Shown here in pieces: positions 7,542 through 57,485 of a stretch of DNA of 64,000 nucleotides. The DNA is taken from positions 5,835 to 69,834 of the forward strand of contig CAIWSB010000089.1 of assembly GCA_903915225.1 (NCBI GenBank), in the 5' to 3' direction. The translations under genes were made by a program, and so were the position numbers. Origin of the DNA: an uncultured Candidatus Woesearchaeota archaeon (GTDB lineage: Archaea > Nanobdellota > Nanobdellia > Woesearchaeales > B29-G15). Numbering within the stretch: the stretch's first letter is position 1; each line of letters starts with the position of its first letter. The notes below the pieces were generated by a model. That model was not told the origin of the DNA, did not search any database, and was given only the letters and a program-made list of their open reading frames with translations.

Positions 7542-7667
7542 TTTTGTTATAGCAGTAGTCGTGGCGCCGCTGGGGCGGGGGTTGTCCAGAGGTATCCGAT
7601 GGACACCAGAGATTCCGAATCTCTGAGTGTCCCTTGCGGGGTGCACCAGGAGGAGCAATAGCGACGA
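7542..7667. repeat. Divergent, longer copy (copy E) of the intergenic structured repeat family, in the same orientation as copy C.
   Basis: It begins AGCAGTAGTCGTGGCGCCG...GGGGG and contains CCTTGCGGGGTG. Compare copy C, which has AGCAGCAACAATGGCGCCG...GGGGG...CCTACGGGGTG. Confidence 0.4.
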
Positions 7668-7753
7668 CGGCCGCCTTATCGTTATCACAGAAAAACAAAT
7701 TTCTAAATTAAGATTAGAATTGAATGAGAATCAAAGGAAGCACCTGAAAATCT

Positions 7754-10885: not shown

Positions 10886-12643
10886 CTATGCATAATACAG
10901 CTTCCCGGTTGTCTTTTGCTCCCTGTCAAGCCTCGAATCCAGCTTGTTTATCCTCGGGCGTTTGGACTCAAGGTCACGCCGTAGGGTTATGCCCAGCACG
11001 CCCAGGAAGAGGTTCATACCAGCTTCCATGGAGAACGGACCTTTTAAAGTGCCTGAGACAGCTGGCTTGCCTTCGAAAACAATCAAATCTTCAGATAGGT
11101 AATCCAGAAAAAGCAAATCATGGTCAACAATAAGGGCAGTTCTGCCTGTGGTTTGAATGAGCCGGCTTATTATTTTAGACACCTGGAGGCGCTGCTCCAC
11201 ATCAAGATAAGCAGATGGTTCATCTAACAAATACAAGTCGGCCTCCTCAGAGAGGCATTTTGCAATCATCACCCTCTGAAGCTCTCCACCAGAGAGGCTG
11301 CTAACGGGCTCTGTCAGCAATGGGTCCAGCTCAAGTGGATGCACAAGCTCATTAATGTGGGTGCTGATGGCGTGTTTAAGGAAAATCCCCACTGGCTCTT
11401 TGCTGTCTGAATCAATATATTGGGGCTTATAGCTCACGGAAACACTTGCATTTAGCTCTCCCTGGTCAGTTGGGATTTCGCCGGCAAGGATTCTCACGAA
11501 AGTTGTCTTGCCGATGCCGTTTTCACCCAAAACTCCAACTAGGTGCTTACGGTAAATGATGCCAGGTTCAGAGGAAAAGGAAAAGTCGCCCAGCTTTTTC
11601 TTAAGGGGCTGCCACTCCACCAAGGCCTGCCCTTTCGCTAGCTTCACTGGGGGTTTGTCGTCGAAAGTGATGGCTCCGGGGCGGAAGCGGATGTTCTCCT
11701 TCCTCATGAAGCCCCGAAGATACTCATTGACTCCCTCACGGGTGGACATTGGGCTTGAAATCACACCATAACCTGAGGGGACTCCGAATGTGATGTGCAC
11801 CAACTCGGTCATGTGGTCAAGGATTATTAGGTCATGCTCGATTACCACAACAGCAGTCTGCTCATTGGCCAGGCTTTGGATGTACTCGCTCACGCGGACC
11901 CTCTGCTTGATGTCAAGGTAGGATGTTGGCTCGTCGAAGAAGAACACATTCGCCTTCTTAAGCGAACAGGAGGCTATTGCCACCCTTTGGAGCTCACCAC
12001 CTGAAATTTGAGAGAGCTTGCGGTCCAGGAACTGGGTCAGCTCGAGCTTCTCAGCCACTTCCTTCATACGCCCCGTCTCGTCCATCTTTTTGAGGAGTTC
12101 TCCGACTGTGCCGCTGAAGCGCTTTGGGAGCAAACTGACCTGCTGCGGCTTCACAGCAACCTTAATTTTGCCTGCATTTAGGTTCTCAAAATAGTTGTGG
12201 AGCTCTGTTCCCTTAAAATACTCGATAAGCTCTTGTATCGACGTATTGTGCTCGGGTTTGCCAAGGTTGGGCTTGAGCTGGCCAGAGAGTATATTGATTG
12301 CAGTGCTCTTTCCAATGCCGTTCTTGCCAATAATGCCCACAACCTTGCCGAAAATGGGTATTGGGAGGTTATATAGATGGAAGCCGTTCTTGCCGTAGGC
12401 GTGTATTGGCGGCTTGCTAAGCTCCTCGGGGAGGTTTATGATATTTATTGCCCCAAATGGGCATTTCTTAATGCAAATCCCGCAGCCGATGCACAGGTTC
12501 TCGTCAATAGCCGCCTTGCTGTCTGGAGTCTTGGAAATACACTCATCCCCCTTCCTGTTAATGGGGCACACCCTAACACAGAGGTAGTCCCCGCAATTAT
12601 TTGGGGCGCATTTCTTCTTGTCCAAAACAGCTATCCTGACCAT
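10886..12643 (-). CDS. ABCE1 (RNase L inhibitor-like ribosome recycling ATPase).
   Basis: The N-terminus has a 2x[4Fe-4S] ferredoxin-like domain (CVRVCPINRKGDECI...CIGCGICIKKCP). Two ABC ATPase domains follow (GKNGIGKST, GENGIGKTT, LSGGELQR x2). I take the start at MVRIAVLD (12643) rather than the ORF-track start at 12664. Confidence 0.9.
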   Translation of the reverse strand: MVRIAVLDKKKCAPNNCGDYLCVRVCPINRKGDECISKTPDSKAAIDENLCIGCGICIKKCPFGAINIINLPEELSKPPIHAYGKNGFHLYNLPIPIFGKVVGIIGKNGIGKSTAINILSGQLKPNLGKPEHNTSIQELIEYFKGTELHNYFENLNAGKIKVAVKPQQVSLLPKRFSGTVGELLKKMDETGRMKEVAEKLELTQFLDRKLSQISGGELQRVAIASCSLKKANVFFFDEPTSYLDIKQRVRVSEYIQSLANEQTAVVVIEHDLIILDHMTELVHITFGVPSGYGVISSPMSTREGVNEYLRGFMRKENIRFRPGAITFDDKPPVKLAKGQALVEWQPLKKKLGDFSFSSEPGIIYRKHLVGVLGENGIGKTTFVRILAGEIPTDQGELNASVSVSYKPQYIDSDSKEPVGIFLKHAISTHINELVHPLELDPLLTEPVSSLSGGELQRVMIAKCLSEEADLYLLDEPSAYLDVEQRLQVSKIISRLIQTTGRTALIVDHDLLFLDYLSEDLIVFEGKPAVSGTLKGPFSMEAGMNLFLGVLGITLRRDLESKRPRINKLDSRLDREQKTTGKLYYA

Positions 12644-12706: not shown

Positions 12707-12827
12707 GCAGCAACAACTCTAGCGGCCTACGGTCATTTGCTGCTGCAAATGCCCTATTCGCCACCCCGTAAGGGGCCGGAACACTTCGTGTTCCTTTCCC
12801 CCGACTCATCGGCGCCATTGTTGCTGC
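12707..12827 (+). repeat. Intergenic structured repeat element, copy A (MITE-like with terminal inverted repeats, or an ncRNA).
   Basis: GCAGCAACAA...GGCGGCCTACGG...hairpin CATTTGC-TGCT-GCAAATG...CGCCACCCCGTAAGGGG...GGCGCCATTGTTGCTGC. The termini are inverted repeats. Copies B, C and D are similar. Confidence 0.6.
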
Positions 12828-12916: not shown

Positions 12917-15352
12917 ATGGAGTTAGATAAGCATTACGACGCAAAGGCGTCAGAGAAGAAGTGGCAGGATTTCTGGCTTAAGGAAAAAATCTATGCCTTC
13001 AACCCGGCCACGAGAAAGAAGATATTCTCGCTAGATACACCTCCACCGACTGTCTCCGGGAGCATGCACATAGGGCATGCAGTTGCCTATTCCCAGGCGG
13101 ATTTCATAATGCGCTACAGGAGGATGGTAGGGGATGAGATTTTCTATCCCTTTGGGTTTGACGATAACGGCCTGCCTTCTGAGCGCTATGTGGAGAAGAA
13201 ATGCGGCGTCAAAGCCACGAAGATGAAGCGGGATGAGTTCAGGAAGCTCTGCATGGAGCAGACTGCAGAGGCTGAGGAGAACATGCTCAAGCAATTCCTC
13301 TCAATTGGGCTTTCACCTGACCTGCAGCTTCGGTACCGAACAATTGACAAGCGCGTGCAGCGCATGTCGCAGCTAAGTTTTATTGAGATTCATGAGATGG
13401 GGCGCGGTTACAGGAAGGAAGCCCCGATTATATGGTGCCCCGAGTGCCAGACTGCAATTGCGCAGGTGGAGCTCAAGGACAAGCAGTTCAGCTCAATGTT
13501 CAATGACATTGTTTTCAAAGTGGGGAGCAGCAATCTGATAATCTCAACAACAAGGCCAGAGCTGCTGCCATCCTGTGTTGCGGTTTTCTATAACCCTGCT
13601 GATGAGAGATACCAGCAATTGAAGGGCAAGGAGGCAAAGGTGCCCCTGATGGACTTTAAAGTCCCAATCCTTGAGGATGCAAAGGTGGACATGACCAAGG
13701 GCACAGGCATTGTCATGTGCTGCACTTTCGGAGACCAGACAGATGTGGAGTGGTACGGCAAGCACAAGCTTCCCCTAAAAATGTCCATCACAAAGGACGG
13801 TAAAATGGCTGAGAGCACTGGAAAGTATGCGGGGCTCACTATAAAGGAAGCAAGGACTGCAATAATTGAGGATTTGAAAGCGAGTGGCCTACTCAAAGAC
13901 CAAAATCCATTGTCGCATTTCGTAAACGTGCACGAACGGTGCGGGACAGAAGTCGAATTCATAGTTTCTAAGCAATGGTTTGTCAAGTACCTTGACTTAG
14001 TGGACAAGTTTGTTGAGATGGGGAACAAACTCAAATGGTACCCTGACCACATGAAGGCTAGGTACGAGAACTGGGTTAAGGGTTTGCGCTGGGACTGGTG
14101 CATATCCAGGCAGCGCTACTTCGGCGTTCCGATTCCGGTTTGGTATTGCGCAAAATGCGATGCTGAGATTATTGCCAGCAAAGATAAACTGCCTATTGAT
14201 CCTCTGGTGGACAAGCCTCCAGTGAAGCAATGCCCAAAATGCGGGTCAACTGAGATTGTGCCAGAGAAGGACGTCATGGACACTTGGGCGACATCATCAC
14301 TGACGCCGTTCATAGCAGCCAAGTGGCGTGAGGATGAAAAGCTCTTTGATAAAATATTCCCGTTCTCGCTGAGGAGCAATGGCCACGACATAATCTCATT
14401 CTGGCTTTTCAATACAATAGTCAAGTCATGGCTACACGAGAAGAAGCTGCCCTGGAAGGATGCCATGATAAACGGGTTTGTGTTGGACCCGCACGGCGAG
14501 AAAATGTCAAAGTCCAAGGGCAACATTATCCTGCCGGAAAATGTGCTAAACCAATTCTGCGCTGACGCACTCAGATTCTGGTCGGCATCTTCAAAGCTCG
14601 GCGAGGACCTGGCATATCAGGAGAAGGATCTGGTTACTGGGATGAAATTCCTGACAAAACTCTGGAACGCCTCCAGGTTTGCGCTGATGCACCTCGAGGA
14701 TTTCAAGGGTGGCAAGCCTAGGAAAATGCACCCGGTGGATCTTTGGATGATAAGCAAGTTCCAGGATGTGATCAAGGAATCCACTGCTGCATTTGAGGAT
14801 TACGAGTTTTCCAAGGCAAAGCAGGTTGTTGAGAACTTCTTCTGGCACACCTTCTGTGACAATTATCTGGAAATGATTAAGGCTAGGCTGTACCTTGAGG
14901 ACAAGGCAAACCCAGAGCGCGTTTCCGCACAATATACAATCTATTATGTGCTACTCAACATCCTAAAGCTGATTGCACCGCTGCTGCCGCACATCGCTGA
15001 AGATATTTACCAATCGTTCTATGCAAAGTCCGAAAATGACAAGAGTATCCACATTGCCAGCTGGCCTATCTACAATGCTGAGCTAAAGGACGCCGCAGCC
15101 CAGAAAGGGGGCGACCTGGTTGTGGATATGGTTACCCGAATCAGGAAATTCAAGTCAATGAGGGACATGAGCCTTAAGGCTGGGATTGATGTGCTCACAA
15201 TAGAGAAGAAGTTTGAGAAGGCAATAGAGGGTTTTGAGGACACGCTTAGGGCAACAACCGCCACCAGCAGGATTGTGTTTGGCAGCCCGATGGAGCTTTC
15301 AACAGAGGAATTCGGCGTAAAGATGGACATCGCCCTGCACGAGGGCGTTTAA
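12917..15352 (+). CDS. valS: Valyl-tRNA synthetase.
   Basis: HIGH region PPPTVSGSMHIGHA, KMSKS motif (EKMSKSKGN), DWCISRQRYFG, and an 811 aa length typical of archaeal ValRS. Confidence 0.85.
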   Translation: MELDKHYDAKASEKKWQDFWLKEKIYAFNPATRKKIFSLDTPPPTVSGSMHIGHAVAYSQADFIMRYRRMVGDEIFYPFGFDDNGLPSERYVEKKCGVKATKMKRDEFRKLCMEQTAEAEENMLKQFLSIGLSPDLQLRYRTIDKRVQRMSQLSFIEIHEMGRGYRKEAPIIWCPECQTAIAQVELKDKQFSSMFNDIVFKVGSSNLIISTTRPELLPSCVAVFYNPADERYQQLKGKEAKVPLMDFKVPILEDAKVDMTKGTGIVMCCTFGDQTDVEWYGKHKLPLKMSITKDGKMAESTGKYAGLTIKEARTAIIEDLKASGLLKDQNPLSHFVNVHERCGTEVEFIVSKQWFVKYLDLVDKFVEMGNKLKWYPDHMKARYENWVKGLRWDWCISRQRYFGVPIPVWYCAKCDAEIIASKDKLPIDPLVDKPPVKQCPKCGSTEIVPEKDVMDTWATSSLTPFIAAKWREDEKLFDKIFPFSLRSNGHDIISFWLFNTIVKSWLHEKKLPWKDAMINGFVLDPHGEKMSKSKGNIILPENVLNQFCADALRFWSASSKLGEDLAYQEKDLVTGMKFLTKLWNASRFALMHLEDFKGGKPRKMHPVDLWMISKFQDVIKESTAAFEDYEFSKAKQVVENFFWHTFCDNYLEMIKARLYLEDKANPERVSAQYTIYYVLLNILKLIAPLLPHIAEDIYQSFYAKSENDKSIHIASWPIYNAELKDAAAQKGGDLVVDMVTRIRKFKSMRDMSLKAGIDVLTIEKKFEKAIEGFEDTLRATTATSRIVFGSPMELSTEEFGVKMDIALHEGV

Positions 15353-15354
15353 TT

Positions 15355-16824
15355 CTAGAAAATAAACTTAAGGATCAGACCCAGGATTACACCTGCTGCT
15401 GCTCCAATCCCCAAACCCCATAACATACTCGCTGCAGGGAGTTCAAGTGCGAGCCAGACGATTAAACCCACTATGACTCCAACAATTGCACCAATTAATG
15501 CAAGCCTTAGGATATTTTTATTCTCTGAAGAGCTATCTTTCGCACATGCATCGCCCTTTCCATCCTTGTCTGTGTCCTTTTGGTCAGCGTTTGCCACATC
15601 AGGGCAGTTGTCGCACACATCCCCCAATTTATCTCCATCGCTATCTGTCTGGACAATATTTACTTCGGAAACGCAGTTGTCGCATGCGTCTCCCACACTA
15701 TCACCATCTGTATCCAATTGGTCTACGTTCTGGATATCAGGGCAGTTGTCCTTGTCATTTAAAATCCCGTCATGATCTCTGTCGTTGTTTAACGAAGGAC
15801 CTGAAGTCACTGTTGTTGTGGTTGTCTGTAAGGGGTTGCTTTGGATATATCTCATACATGAGTTTGAGTCGCACTGCCCAATGGTTGCGAAATCAACCCA
15901 GACAAATCCCTCGCCTGTACACTTCACATTTTCTCTCTGGTTGCCTCCCCAAACATCATCGGGTGAGTGTGAGCAGCAACAGCCCTTGGTGCATTCATTC
16001 CAGTTGGCAAAATTAATTGAGTTCATCATTGCGCATGCCACTGAGCCCTCCTGGCAGGTATCGGCTTGGTAATAGAAGAACCAGTTCTTGAGGCAGTCTG
16101 CCTGATCCTTGGGGCCATTTTCGTTTCCGGTGGCATAGGCTTTTGGGTCATCTGCCGGGCAGCACTCTTTTGCAACCTGGTTATATGTGCAGGGGCTTGT
16201 CTTAGGGTTTACGCAGCATCCGCTCTTCTCCTGTTCTCCCCCTTGGCAGATGCTGTTTGTGCAGCCACCAGGGCACCAGTTCGTTGTTTTCATGCAAGAG
16301 CCACTTGAACAGAAATATTCAGCAGCCCTGTTGCTCCCATCGCAATCGTCCACAAAGCCATGCCCTTGGGCGTCAATACAAATGCTCTGGACATCAAAGT
16401 TTTTTCCATCTGGATGGGCTGCGTCAACATCAAAGTCCTTGCATGTTCCTAAGGGAACGTTACCATAGCTCTTGCGGCAAACCCCTTTATCTATATCGCA
16501 GCCGAACTCGCATTTCTCTTCAGTAGACATGCAGAAAGGGGGATGACACTGGTAGCAGAACCATTCCTTAAGTGTTGACAAACTAAGGCATTCATCTGGT
16601 ACATTAGTTACTGTGCCATCGCTGCATGTTCCCCACTCGTAAATCTTCCTCCCATTATCAGTCTCAGAGCATCCAGAATATGGTGTCGCAATGGTGGTAG
16701 TTGTGCCACAACCAACCCCGCCGACACTCCCTCCACACTTGGGGGATGTAGAATCTTCAGCAGAAACAATTATAGGAACAAATAGAAATAATATAAGTAA
16801 AACCAGCAGCACCCTTTTAAGCAT
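15355..16824 (-). CDS. Secreted cysteine-rich protein with thrombospondin type-3 (TSP3) calcium-binding repeats and a C-terminal TM anchor.
   Basis: Signal peptide, then about 60 Cys residues in repeated modules. TSP3-like repeats ([26 protein letters not shown]...[34 protein letters not shown]) precede C-terminal hydrophobic helices. Confidence 0.7.
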   Translation of the reverse strand: MLKRVLLVLLILFLFVPIIVSAEDSTSPKCGGSVGGVGCGTTTTIATPYSGCSETDNGRKIYEWGTCSDGTVTNVPDECLSLSTLKEWFCYQCHPPFCMSTEEKCEFGCDIDKGVCRKSYGNVPLGTCKDFDVDAAHPDGKNFDVQSICIDAQGHGFVDDCDGSNRAAEYFCSSGSCMKTTNWCPGGCTNSICQGGEQEKSGCCVNPKTSPCTYNQVAKECCPADDPKAYATGNENGPKDQADCLKNWFFYYQADTCQEGSVACAMMNSINFANWNECTKGCCCSHSPDDVWGGNQRENVKCTGEGFVWVDFATIGQCDSNSCMRYIQSNPLQTTTTTVTSGPSLNNDRDHDGILNDKDNCPDIQNVDQLDTDGDSVGDACDNCVSEVNIVQTDSDGDKLGDVCDNCPDVANADQKDTDKDGKGDACAKDSSSENKNILRLALIGAIVGVIVGLIVWLALELPAASMLWGLGIGAAAGVILGLILKFIF

Positions 16825-16869
16825 TTTAAGTCGGTAATACCTTATACTAGTATTTAAAATTTTGCATAA

Positions 16870-18684
16870 TTAAATCAGGCCGAACAGTGAGCCAACTATT
16901 CCTCCAACAACACCGCAGGCAAACACAAGGGGCAAAAGTATTGGGGCGAGGGCAGGCACGGTGAGTGCAATAATCCCTCCAATAACCCCACCAACTATAG
17001 CGCCGAAAAGTGCATACTGTTGGGTCTTGTTTGAACTACCATCGCAGGCATCCCCCTTACCATCACTGTTAGTGTCCTTTTGGCTGGGATTGGATTTGTC
17101 AATGCAGTTGTCACAAGCATCCCCCACTTTGTCATCATCCCCATCCGCCTGATCCTGGTTGGGGGTTTCAATGCAGTCGTCGCAGGCATCACCCACCGAA
17201 TCTTTATCAGTATCACTCTGGTCTGCATTTTTTACAAAAGGGCAATTGTCGCAAACATCGCCAATCTGGTCCAAATCAGAATCCTTCTGATCAGGATTGC
17301 TAACATCAATACAATTGTCCATGGCATCGCTAATGCCATCCTTATCTATGTCTTCAGAAGAGGCTGGAGGTTTTATCGAAGATTGGTCATCGTTAACGAT
17401 TTCCTCAGCTGTTCCCCCCATTATTTTTGCGCAGGCCTCATTGCTGCATTCATTAATCTCTCCAAAAGATTTCCACTGCTGCTGGCTTCCGCCGCATTTT
17501 ATCTTGGACAGTTGAGAGCCCTTCACAAATCCTGATGGGGAGCGCTCGCAGCAGCAGCCCTGTTCACAGTATCCCGCATTGTCAAAATTCGCTGTGGTCA
17601 TCTGGGCGCAGGCATCATCACTGCTATAAAAGAAGAACCAATCGCGGGAGAGGCATTGCTGCCTATCTTTTGGACCCACTTCTATGGGGGAAACATATTG
17701 GGTTGTATCCTCTGGACAGCAAAGGCTGGCTGATTCGTAATACGTGCAGGCATTCTTTTTGGGGTTGAGGCAGCAGCCCCCCCCTTGAGTCATTTCTGGC
17801 TGCTCAACGAGGCACGCACCGGCAGCGCAACCCCAGGTGCATTTCTGCATTGCATCCATTGCACAGCTGCCGCCCAGGCAATAGAATTCCTGGATATGGC
17901 ACCTGTCACCTGAGCAGGAATCAACATATTCAAAGTTAGTTCCATCATCAGTGAGGACGCATTGGTCAGTCCAAGATTTGAGCCTGTCATTGCAGGTCCC
18001 CTGGACGAAAAAGTCCTTTGAATTGTCTGTCTCTGAACAATCCTGCCGAGGCTGCTCTGTAGCCATTGGAATCTCAATTGTTGTAAAAGTCCTGACCTTG
18101 CAAGCCCCATTCTCGCAGCCCAGCGGGCACCAATTGTCCTTTGGGAGGCATTGTGATTCTGGTTGACTATTGCACTCTCTGCCGTGGCAGCCTCCGCTAG
18201 GAGTTGCCGGACCGCAGTAGTATTCCTTTAAGCGATTGCCATCACAAGTGTCTGGAAACTCCTGTTCACTTCCTGTCCCAATGCCATCTGTGCAGAGCCC
18301 ATTAACCTCTGGAAAAATCCCTTCGTCAGTGTCATCGCAGCCAGGCGCGGGGTAAGTAATTTTTGTTCCGCTGGGCAGACAGGCGCCATTAAGACAGCCA
18401 TTGTCGCACCAGGCGTCGTTTGGCATGCAAAGCCCCTCTCGGCAGTAATACTCGGTTAGCCTCACAGGGTACCCGGCGGCTTCGTAGTCACACTTGTCAA
18501 TAACTGTTCGGGTGGCATCCTTGCACACGCCTTGCATATAGACATTGAATCCGCCATCCTCCTCACAGCATGTGCCACTGTTATCCAAATAACAGACCGA
18601 GTCCCCACAATCGCAGGCTGCTGCAATTCCTGCGCATAGTATCATAGCGAGCAACAGTGCCAAACAGAACCTCATTAATTTCAC
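16870..18684 (-). CDS. Secreted cysteine-rich protein with TSP3 repeats (a paralogue of the 15355-16824 gene) and a C-terminal TM anchor.
   Basis: Same architecture as the 15355-16824 gene. It has three CxDTDxG...C..GC..GAC modules, a shared GCC(V/L)NPK..CTY...CCP.D...GPKD..CL module, five TSP3-like repeats (DxDxDxxGDxCDNCP), and a C-terminal TM. Confidence 0.7.
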
Positions 18685-18880
18685 CAGTTTTGCTATGGAG
18701 ATTTGTAATATACTAATATAAATAATTTAGGGTAAGGACAGCCGTGAATAAAAAACAGTAAAATTAGCCCCGTACATAATGGCAAAGAGTAACGGATTCT
18801 AGCGAAACTTTGCACGATGTGCACAAAATATCTGTTTTAAGATTTTTTTGTTATTATAGAGTGATTACACTTCGAAAGGT

Positions 18881-18890
18881 TTATAAATAA
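18881..18890 (+). promoter_or_regulatory. TATA box of a leaderless promoter for the 18917-31557 operon.
   Basis: TTATAAATAA lies about 30 nt upstream of the ATG at 18917 in an AT-rich intergenic region. There is no SD sequence, consistent with a leaderless archaeal transcript. Confidence 0.4.
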
Positions 18891-18916
18891 GCCCAAATGC
18901 CTATCTTCGAGGGACA

Positions 18917-19693
18917 ATGGTGAATATTGACATTACAGGTAACTGTAACCAGAGATGCGAGTTTTGCTACCAAACCCTGGATGGCTCAAGCCTGCCAACC
19001 GACGTGATTTTGGACGTGGTTCAAGAACAGAAGAGCGATAGCAGCGTCCAAGTGGGTGGAGGAGAGCCAATGCTTGATCCTCGGATATTGTGGCTAATAG
19101 AAAAATTTGTTGACATGGGGAAAAGGGTGCACATTGCCACCAATGGGACAGTTATTCCAGAGGGGCTTTTAGACCTTGAAGAGACTGTCAAGAAAAACGT
19201 CGAGATTCAGGTGAGCCTCCATGCATCCAGCCCTGAGCTTTACAAGAGCATTACTGGAACTGATTTTTTCGACAGGGTTTTAGAAAATATTGGGGCTTTG
19301 AAAGCCCATTTCACAACTCTCATCACAAGTGTGGTTTATCAGAGAAATTATGGTGATATGCAGAATATCATTGACTTGGCCGAGCAGATGGGCTTGCCGC
19401 TGCGCGTGAACCTTGTCTTCCCAGTGGGGCTCGGCAAGGATGTGATTCGGCTGACCTCAAAGCAGGTTGAAGGGCTGCGCGGGCTGCTGCTGGCTGAGAG
19501 GCTGGGAAAAAAGGGGATGATTGATTCGCCGCTGGTGCATGCCGAAAGCAACTGCCATGCGCTGGAAGTGGCATATGGAATCCCACGAACAGGGCAGTGC
19601 CCGTTCGACCTGGGGAAGCTCTATGTTGCCCCGAGCGGTGAGAGATTTGGTTGTGAATTTTATAGAAAGAAGGAAAGGAGGAATGAAAAATGA
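18917..19693 (+). CDS. Radical SAM enzyme with a C-terminal twitch/SPASM-like Cys motif.
   Basis: CNQRCEFC (CxxxCxxC) near the N-terminus, a GGGEP SAM-binding motif, and C-terminal GQCPFDLGKLYVAPSGERFGCEF. Confidence 0.75.
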   Translation: MVNIDITGNCNQRCEFCYQTLDGSSLPTDVILDVVQEQKSDSSVQVGGGEPMLDPRILWLIEKFVDMGKRVHIATNGTVIPEGLLDLEETVKKNVEIQVSLHASSPELYKSITGTDFFDRVLENIGALKAHFTTLITSVVYQRNYGDMQNIIDLAEQMGLPLRVNLVFPVGLGKDVIRLTSKQVEGLRGLLLAERLGKKGMIDSPLVHAESNCHALEVAYGIPRTGQCPFDLGKLYVAPSGERFGCEFYRKKERRNEK

Positions 19694-42661: not shown

Positions 42662-42675
42662 TTCAAAGGTTTTCT

Positions 42676-42786
42676 GCAGACATCAACAACTTTGGCGGCC
42701 TACGGTCAAAATCGCTTCTGCGATTTTGCCCTATTCGCCACCCCGTAGGGGGCGTCCCCCGGTTCATTGGCGCCTTTGTTGCTGCT
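42676..42786 (+). repeat. Intergenic structured repeat element, copy B.
   Basis: GCAGACATCAACAACTTTGGCGGCCTACGG..CAAAATCGC-TTCT-GCGATTTTG..CGCCACCCCGTAGGGGGCG..GGCGCCTTTGTTGCTGC. Confidence 0.6.
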
Positions 42787-42884
42787 CGTTGTTTATTAAT
42801 TATTCCTCTGTAGGGAAGCTTTATAATTTTGCTCAGATTAATACAAATGGGGCAAAAGGGGTTGAACGTTAAGGTGCTAGATAT

Positions 42885-52259: not shown

Positions 52260-52364
52260 TGGGTCGGACGAGATTTTCAAGTCCCGGCCGGACGGCGAGG
52301 ACAATTCGAACTCGCGACCTCTTGATTAAAAGTCAAGCGCTCTGCCAAGCTGAGCTACCGACCC
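52260..52364 (-). tRNA. tRNA-Lys (anticodon UUU) with a putative ~31 nt non-canonical intron directly after the T-loop.
   Basis: Minus strand: GGGTCGG-TA-GCTCAGCTTGGCAGAGC-G-CTTGA-CTTTTAA-TCAAG-AGGTC-GCGAG-TTCGAAT-[TGTCCTCGCCGTCCGGCCGGGACTTGAAAAT]-CTCGT-CCGACCC-A. Confidence 0.65.
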
Positions 52365-52383: not shown

Positions 52384-52491
52384 CGCCCCGGCCGGGATTT
52401 TTGCTCCCCGTAACTTTGTGTCGCGGGAAAGATTCGAACCCGGGTCAAAGCCTCGACAGGGCTTTATGATAGGCCGACTACACCACCAGGG
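52384..52491 (-). tRNA. tRNA-Asp (anticodon GUC) with a putative ~35 nt non-canonical intron after the T-loop.
   Basis: Minus strand: GCCCTGG-TG-GTGTAGTCGGCCTATCAT-A-AAGCC-CTGTCGA-GGCTT-TGAC-CCGGG-TTCGAAT-[CTTTCCCGCGACACAAAGTTACGGGGAGCAAAAAT]-CCCGG-CCGGGGC-G. The D-arm closely resembles known archaeal tRNA-Asp. Confidence 0.65.
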
Positions 52492-52621
52492 CGTGCTCAC
52501 TTTGTACCGTATCCTCTACAAACTGTGCGTTCGCGTAGTTTACAGAAGATAAGATACCCCATTTTCCAATGTGATTTCTAGTTCCTTTATAAAGTTTTCT
52601 CCTCATATTGAGGAGAATGAG

Positions 52622-52849: not shown

Positions 52850-52955
52850 GCAGCAACAATGGCGCCGATGAGCCGGGGGAGGGCCCCTACGGGGTGGCGA
52901 ATAGGGCAAAATTGCCTCAGCGATTTTGGCCGTAGGCAGCCATTATTGTTGCTGC
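52850..52955 (-). repeat. Intergenic structured repeat element, copy C (opposite orientation to A, B and D).
   Basis: The reverse complement reads GCAGCAACAATAATGGCTGCCTACGGCCAAAATCGCTGAGGCAATTTTGCCCTATTCGCCACCCCGTAGGGGCCCTCCCCCGGCTCATCGGCGCCATTGTTGCTGC. Confidence 0.6.
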
Positions 52956-57198: not shown

Positions 57199-57291
57199 TT
57201 TTCTGAAGGCAGCAACAACTCTGGCGGCCGTCCTCGCTCCGCTCGTCCCCCTGCCACCCCGTAGGGGGCTGCCCCCGGCCGGGCGGCGTCA
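57199..57291 (+). repeat. Intergenic structured repeat element, copy D (shorter variant).
   Basis: GCAGCAACAACTCTGGCGGCCGTCC...GCCACCCCGTAGGGGGCTGCCCCCGGCCGGGCGGCGTCACTATTGCTGC. Confidence 0.5.
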
Positions 57292-57485
57292 CTATTGCTG
57301 CCCGCTGCATTTTTGTTAATCACTTCCATTTCTTGGCAGTTTAATTTAATCTATTATTACTATATAATTCCCAATCTCCTATGTTTATTTCTCATTTTTC
57401 CCAATGCTCAAAAACCCCATTCTCCCTCGGAGCAACTCAACGAAACATTTAAATACTTCCTGCGTCCATACCAGTTTACAAAAAG

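Follow-up and report, generated by a model that had tools for sequence, protein, structure and literature searches.

Within the 64,000-nt stretch of Woesearchaeota DNA analyzed here (i.e., the window), a short palindromic unit at positions 12707 to 12827 recurs in other intergenic gaps, which raises the question of whether such units are mobile DNA, functional RNA, or binding sites for a protein. We conclude that the window holds five members of a large family of branched palindromic repeats that is widespread in Woesearchaeota-like DPANN archaea and so far undescribed.

The common form of the family (type 1), which includes copies A to C, is a three-way junction. It is composed of a closing stem, P1 (8 to 20 bp), followed by a bulge of about 3 nt on the 5' strand; a stem P2 of about 8 bp with one 1-nt bulge; a variable hairpin, P3; and a stem P4 of 6 to 8 bp. 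The junction nucleotides are AC between P2 and P3 and UA between P3 and P4. P4 surrounds an almost invariant loop of about 21 nt, A-CCCC-GNA-(R)GGG-N-C-NN-CCCCC, which contains a 4-bp C/G mini-hairpin (P5) with a GNA tip and then a C-run. The P5 tips are GUA (98 cases), GGA (11), GAA (7), and GCA (1), while 60 of the 98 P3 tips are triloops, mostly C-UNC-G, the complement of C-GNA-G. Mini-hairpins of the type d(C-GNA-G) are exceptionally stable in DNA. At least three backbones carry the core, some subfamilies do without P3 or P1, and further scaffolds have P4 and the core alone. The family is unusual in that its interior is conserved rather than its ends, and in that the fold persists through circular permutation and backbone exchange.

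In the window, the copies measure 95 to 121 nt, are all intergenic, and occur at a density of about 78 per Mb. Copy A (12707 to 12827; plus strand; subtype 1a) consists of P1 (12707 to 12716 with 12818 to 12827), P2 (12721 to 12727 with 12811 to 12817), P3 (12731 to 12754), and P4 (12756 to 12762 with 12803 to 12809). Its core loop (12763 to 12802) reads A-CCCC-GUA-AGGG-GC...CCCCC, and the variable linker carries an extra 17-nt hairpin (GGAACAC-UUC-GUGUUCC; 12778 to 12794); a comparable insertion was also seen at locus L026. Copy B (42676 to 42785; plus strand; subtype 1a) has P1 at 42676 to 42689 with 42776 to 42785, P2 at 42693 to 42700 with 42769 to 42775, P3 at 42704 to 42731, and P4 at 42733 to 42739 with 42761 to 42767, enclosing the core loop ACCCCGUAGGGGGCGUCCCCC (42740 to 42760). 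Copy C (52850 to 52955; minus strand; subtype 1a; P3, 52904 to 52931; core loop, 52875 to 52895) is 84% complementary to copy B across 116 nt. Copy D (57208 to 57302; plus strand; core loop, 57256 to 57276) has a pyrimidine-rich linker (57231 to 57250) in place of P3 and represents subtype 1b. Copy E (7561 to 7676; minus strand), of the same subtype, lacks a clear P1 but retains P4 (7643 to 7649 with 7570 to 7576) and P2 (7668 to 7676 with 7561 to 7568). Its core loop (7577 to 7642) reads A-CCCC-GCA-AGGG-AC, an insert of about 45 nt, and CCCCC; the loop is therefore GCAA instead of GUAA, and the insert is a hairpin located at the same linker as that of copy A. Copies D and E form a common subfamily without the P3 hairpin (GGCGGCCGUC...), and copy E aligns with P3-less relatives.

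The 15-nt core GCCACCCCGTAGGGG has five matches in the window (i.e., copies A to D and positions 10973 to 10987, the last with three mismatches and representing a chance site), while 0.78 are expected and none of 100 shuffles reached five. With a covariance model (R1) built from 22 sequences, namely ones from other genomes plus copies B and C themselves, only copies C (75 bits), B (70.4 bits), D (33.3 bits), and A (32.4 bits) gave credible matches in the window (E = 1e-15 to 1e-5). Both D and E match the subfamily signature GGCGGCYGUC...CACCCCGNARGGG, for which the chance expectation is 0. These statistics and a reading of each site bear out an earlier sequence-only reading, in which four clear intergenic copies and a divergent fifth had been proposed. 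Its boundaries hold for copies A and C; copy B ends at 42785, copy D lies about ten bases to the right (57208 to 57302, not 57199 to 57291), and copy E belongs on the minus strand at 7561 to 7676. The perfect 10-nt terminal inverted repeats that it described occur in A and C only, as copy B reads GCAGACATCAACAA and copy D reads TATTGCTGCC; the terminal repeat (P1) spans 8 to 11 bp in copies A to D and is absent in copy E.

Further copies are abundant outside the window. A core scan of one genome per species yielded 89 loci, a metagenome scan yielded 102 more, and viral contigs contributed 3 (1 of them canonical). Matches with the canonical 25-nt spacing came almost exclusively from Woesearchaeota/Nanoarchaeota MAGs, with a few from MAGs labeled Methanosarcinales. 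Model R1 gave 126 matches when run on the window together with 97 metagenome-derived loci, and the remaining 97 loci added 65 (i.e., 191 in total). Altogether, Woesearchaeota/Nanoarchaeota MAGs and metagenomes supplied about 190 related copies. Many copies per genome are common (at least 15 in one MAG), and those of one genome are near-identical, dispersed, intergenic, and found in both orientations. A stretch of 2.2 kb at L177:73-2193 holds three copies, which fill every intergenic gap beside its housekeeping genes; one of these genes looks DapB-like. The window genes at 43.9 to 48.6 kb have 68 to 76% DNA identity to contigs of two Woesearchaeota MAGs, and the ValRS gene of the window is recorded in an ENA metagenome assembly only, which points to a Woesearchaeota-like DPANN archaeon as the source. 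No support was obtained for synteny between copy B and either L016 or L046. No description of the element was found in the literature by core string or under DPANN repeats. In a census of MITEs, a Woesearchaea genome ranks among the MITE-richest archaea (105 per Mb), with no description of structure (PMC11602168). Two model matches of about 43 bits lie on contigs with bacterial labels, one full-length (L022:209-286; a 78-kb contig labeled Planctomycetaceae; 67% GC) and one of 56 nt (L019:3502-3557; labeled Binatia), and mis-binning or an occasional transfer into bacteria could account for them.

The fold is conserved through compensatory change. In the 126-match alignment, which was fitted to the model and is hence biased toward it, although the margins are large, 88.4% of the cells were paired, compared with 68.3% after shuffling and 26 to 49% when partners were slid. 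Double changes were found in 24 of the 27 pairs, and 575 cells carried a compensatory change; the outer P5 pair covaries (C-G, 95; G-C, 11; U-A, 8). The sequence of P1 varies among genomes (CAACAA, CCAGCCAUG, CACGCCACC, and others) while its complementarity is kept, and the arms in general are alike within one genome and different, yet still complementary, between genomes. Selection on structure, as proposed from the window alone, is therefore strongly supported. The compensatory stem changes cited in its favor hold between copies A and B; between B and C, only one side of the stem differs. Positions 75 and 79, on either side of the G-run, also covary (A..A, 56; G..G, 47; mixed, 2), which hints at two balanced alternative hairpins, formed by C-run 1 with the G-run or by the G-run with C-run 2.

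That this selection acts on RNA in particular is not supported. G.U pairs make up 30 of the 2,891 cells (about 1%) and A.C combinations make up 98, of which 74 fall at two special positions; since G.U is no commoner than A.C, there is neither wobble tolerance nor strand bias. Both strands fold about equally well, with z-scores of -2.8 to -5.5. The data agree with a constraint that acts on DNA, or on both strands, and are also compatible with RNA. None of the Rfam 15 covariance models matched, at gathering thresholds or at E values up to 10, so that the units were not assigned to any known RNA family.

Direct signs of mobility come from sister units. In Woesearchaeota MAG.78 and several metagenome contigs, units of 134 to 158 nt with the same P4 and core end in GGCTCTGTAGAAAA...TTTTCTACAGAGCC. 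These units (types 2 and 3) are flanked by perfect 9/9 target duplications at L032, L089, L095, and L137 and by 8/9 duplications at three more loci, while shuffled flank pairs never exceeded 7/9. Given their exact 9-bp duplications and inverted ends, the sister units are true MITEs, and elements with the same core insert as DDE-type MITEs do. Their ends resemble those of IS6100 and IS903 (GGCTCTGT...), as judged against reference ends checked in plasmid records: the IS6100 end GGCTCTGTTGCAAA is matched at 14 of 14 positions by GGCTCTGTTGCAAATC (L089:781) and at 12 of 14 by GGCTCTGTAGAAAA (most copies), and the IS903 end GGCTTTGTTGAATAAATC is matched at 12 of 18. The 9-bp duplication is that of IS903 (IS5 family), while IS6 elements generate 8-bp duplications. 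A further variant, at L046, is a clean circular permutation in which the P3-equivalent helix closes the element and P2 is hairpin-capped; the P2 bulge and the junction nucleotides, AC and UA, are still present, and the target duplication is 8/9. Two other MITE families share the GGCTYTGT ends of the sister units and have perfect 9-bp duplications of their targets but lack the core (L069:7795-7937 and L167:687-792).

The window subtype differs in these respects. The window copies have other ends (GGCAGCAACAA). Type-1 singles, including the window copies, show only a mild excess of 7/9 matches in AT-rich flanks, so no convincing target duplication was found for this subtype. Likewise, no autonomous IS and no transposase gene with matching ends was found in the 1.2 Mb of sequence examined. 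Candidate partners at two loci were rejected. At L103, an IS6-family element (94 to 1022; DDE_Tnp_IS240; ends, GGAGACYGTWACCTTAA), an IS5-type, IS903-like element (1029 to 2377; DDE_Tnp_1; ends, ACTAYACGGTGTTGCACAA), and a core-bearing MITE (2381 to 2536) are clustered, but the ends of the two transposase elements differ from those of the MITEs. A tblastn search of the genome fragments with RAYT and IS608 TnpA returned only a solitary IS200-like Y1 transposase gene between SMC and the next gene (L154:6711-7223), and its flanking simple hairpins, CCAGCC-TTTA-GGCTGG and CCCCGCCC-TTTA-GGGCGGGG, are unrelated to the core. The flanks of copy B (42670 to 42680, TTTTCTGCAGA; 42806 to 42817, CTCTGTAGGGAA) resemble the right and left ends of GGCTCTGTAG-type MITEs facing outward and could be end remnants or chance matches. 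The suggestion that the window copies are MITE-like is supported in kind: near-identical dispersed intergenic copies and the terminal inverted repeats and 9-bp duplications of the sisters speak for it, whereas the window subtype gave no convincing duplication and the 1.2 Mb gave no autonomous IS.

Arrangement and persistence add a different aspect. All 30 distinct adjacent pairs are tail-to-tail, with no tandem or head-to-head pairs, and the doublet partner is usually a compensated-core variant (GGC-A-GCCC-GNA-GGGC-GCRU-CCCC-A-GCC). Two genomes with flanks about 75% identical carry elements at the same intergenic site, with cores that differ by compensatory changes; this fits long retention under selection, re-insertion, or gene conversion.

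Gene context bears on every functional reading. The neighbors of the window copies include those previously named, i.e., ABCE1 and ValRS, a wHTH gene and a DAGK-like kinase gene, tRNA genes, and a proteasome subunit gene. Copies B and C are in sense orientation and begin 15 and 30 nt, respectively, past stop codons, whereas copies A and D either adjoin the starts of genes or run antisense to their neighbors. Across relatives, the elements are almost always intergenic without a preferred orientation to genes. By crude ORF calls, the contexts of 59 sites were convergent (5), divergent (20), or tandem (34), which gives a depletion rather than an enrichment between convergent genes (5/59 against a 15% background), and the tandem contexts comprised 10 sense and 13 antisense elements. 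No recurrent neighboring gene was found beside the elements. The copies thus have no fixed relation to genes and, as far as the crude ORF calls tell, show neither the orientation nor the position expected of a strand-specific cis-regulatory RNA.

For these reasons, we consider it rather unlikely that the repeats are primarily a host-functional structured noncoding RNA or RNA module (protein-binding, switch-like, or catalytic) in which the fold matters and mobile backbones are only carriers. Such a module would account for the very strong covariation, the stable folds, the invariant loop in at least three backbones, the covariation of positions 75 and 79, and the retention at an orthologous site; moreover, the circularly permuted junction at L046 is a trait of small ribozymes, and the GUAA and GCAA forms could be GNRA tetraloops. 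However, G.U pairs are not in excess, the two strands fold equally well, orientation is unlinked to genes, sites show no enrichment at gene 3' ends, the triloop tips are mostly C-GNA-G/C-UNC-G, P3 and P1 can be lost, and neither an Rfam family nor a ribozyme core was matched. A promoter common to the repeat units is also missing, and a shared upstream promoter was rejected because the window copies share no TATA box. The proposal that the units are a noncoding RNA or UTR module is thus not upheld. More specifically, a role as transcription terminator or mRNA 3'-end stabilizer, as proposed for bacterial REPs, with tail-to-tail pairs acting bidirectionally, appears highly improbable to us. The positions of copies B and C, the many P1 stems that are A-run/U-run hairpins, and the uniformly convergent orientation of adjacent pairs favor it, but the genomic context is wrong, both at copies A and D and at convergent-gene sites, and there is no excess of sense elements. 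Archaeal termination requires oligo-T alone, so that the conserved loop would have no explanation under this reading.

The strand-symmetric constraint, the invariant 21-nt core, the GNA triloops of the stable-DNA type, and the high density (e.g., the three copies in 2.2 kb of L177) would suit a site in double- or single-stranded DNA at which a chromosomal protein acts in replication, recombination, nucleoid organization, or DNA uptake. We nevertheless regard such a site that is not itself mobile as quite improbable, because the sister elements clearly transpose, the arms are uniform in any one genome, as they would be after a recent spread, and no candidate protein is known. A real if unlikely possibility is that P4 plus A-CCCC-GNA-GGGG-NCNN-CCCCC is a functional nucleic acid module of RNA or single-stranded DNA (a catalytic site, a bistable switch, or a site recognized by a protein) that was captured by, or itself generated, several unrelated backbones, including the circular permutation, and is selected independently of transposition.

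Our preferred reading, which we hold with slightly better than even confidence, is that the family consists of noncoding, nonautonomous palindromic repeats of the MITE/REP kind that have become dispersed over the intergenic regions of Woesearchaeota-like DPANN archaea. As a whole, it looks like mobile DNA of this kind more than like a strand-specific regulatory RNA. Each unit would fold as a three-way junction in single-stranded DNA, in RNA of either strand, or in both. Complementarity may persist because copies that cannot fold are neither propagated nor retained, the invariant hairpin would be the cis-site for a putative mobilizing or maintenance protein, and the window copies are probably passive passengers at their intergenic sites. 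Besides the unconvincing target duplications of type 1, the autonomous IS not found in 1.2 Mb, and the possible long retention at an orthologous site, two points speak against this reading. Ordinary MITEs have conserved ends and a free interior, whereas the reverse is true here across unrelated backbones; and DDE transposases need no folded substrate, so that their mechanism does not explain the strong covariation.

Several known systems invite comparison. As with the MITEs of prokaryotes (Correia/NEMIS, ERIC, RUP, and archaeal MITEs), the units are noncoding, multicopy, dispersed, intergenic, shorter than about 300 bp, and present in both orientations, with terminal inverted repeats, compensatory complementarity, and, in the sister subtypes, exact 9-bp duplications. 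They differ from MITEs in their conserved interior hairpin and varying ends, the branched junction, the circularly permuted form, the lack of demonstrable target duplications in the window subtype, and the lack of a known parent IS. With RAYT-mobilized REP/BIME/REPIN sequences, they share the character of GC-rich extragenic imperfect palindromes without convincing target duplications, inverted doublets, persistence at loci, and within-genome homogeneity, and the tail-to-tail doublets of two core variants recall the alternating variants of BIMEs and REPINs. Unlike REPs, however, they are larger and branched, no RAYT gene was found in the examined fragments, and the GTAG that directly precedes the REP hairpin is not at that place; on the core strand, P4 is preceded by CUAC, which puts GUAG 3' of the hairpin on the other strand. 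Integron attC sites resemble the units in being imperfect palindromes that fold with bulged bases and in having an apical part that varies and sometimes branches, but we found no RYYYAAC/GTTRRRY core sites, cassette arrays, or integrase, and the copies are separated by 4 to 30 kb with housekeeping genes between them. Circularly permuted small ribozymes (hammerhead types I to III and twister) also are three-way junctions with different helices open or capped, but here there is no catalytic core sequence, no Rfam match, and no strand specificity. Other candidates were rejected as well: hammerhead, twister, HDV-like, and hairpin ribozymes, nadA-like and other riboswitches, and 5S- or SRP-like RNAs (no core motifs; no Rfam match at E = 10); a small ORF from a conserved AUGG to the loop UAR (the frame is not kept, and GGA and GAA loops have no stop codon); a K-turn or bulge-helix-bulge at the P1/P2 bulges (unsuitable geometry); and a C+.G-C triplex of the C-run (wrong strand polarity).

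Although DPANN genomes are tiny, close to 1% of the window consists of these repeats, and elsewhere they occupy several intergenic gaps in succession. Recognition of the family would allow hundreds of GC-rich intergenic islands in Woesearchaeota MAGs, so far unexplained, to be annotated, and the repeats could serve as a marker in binning and in the tracking of strains. They also suggest a putative protein or activity by which a C/G mini-hairpin with a GNA tip is read.

Several observations concern neighboring genes. Just downstream of copy C are two tRNA genes on the minus strand (52294 to 52358 and 52418 to 52492). The Rfam match of the first is limited to model positions 7 to 64 and has a 5-nt insert; ARAGORN detects only tRNA-Asp, to which Rfam gives a subthreshold score of 24.9 bits. 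These tRNAs may be atypical or intron-bearing. Echoing this arrangement, a 106-nt tRNA gene that probably contains an intron (L089:1012-1117) lies between core-bearing MITE copies at 781 to 915 and 1166 to 1299. Elsewhere in the window, two adjacent minus-strand genes (15352 to 19300; 489 and 591 amino acids on a matching contig) show faint matches to thrombospondin type 3 repeats and contain 68-nt direct repeats spaced 138 nt apart (15545 to 17319). Between 22370 and 31400, several repeat families (D2, D4, D6, D12, and D13) recur with a spacing of 1.2 to 3.4 kb, which suggests a plus-strand tandem array of paralogous genes.
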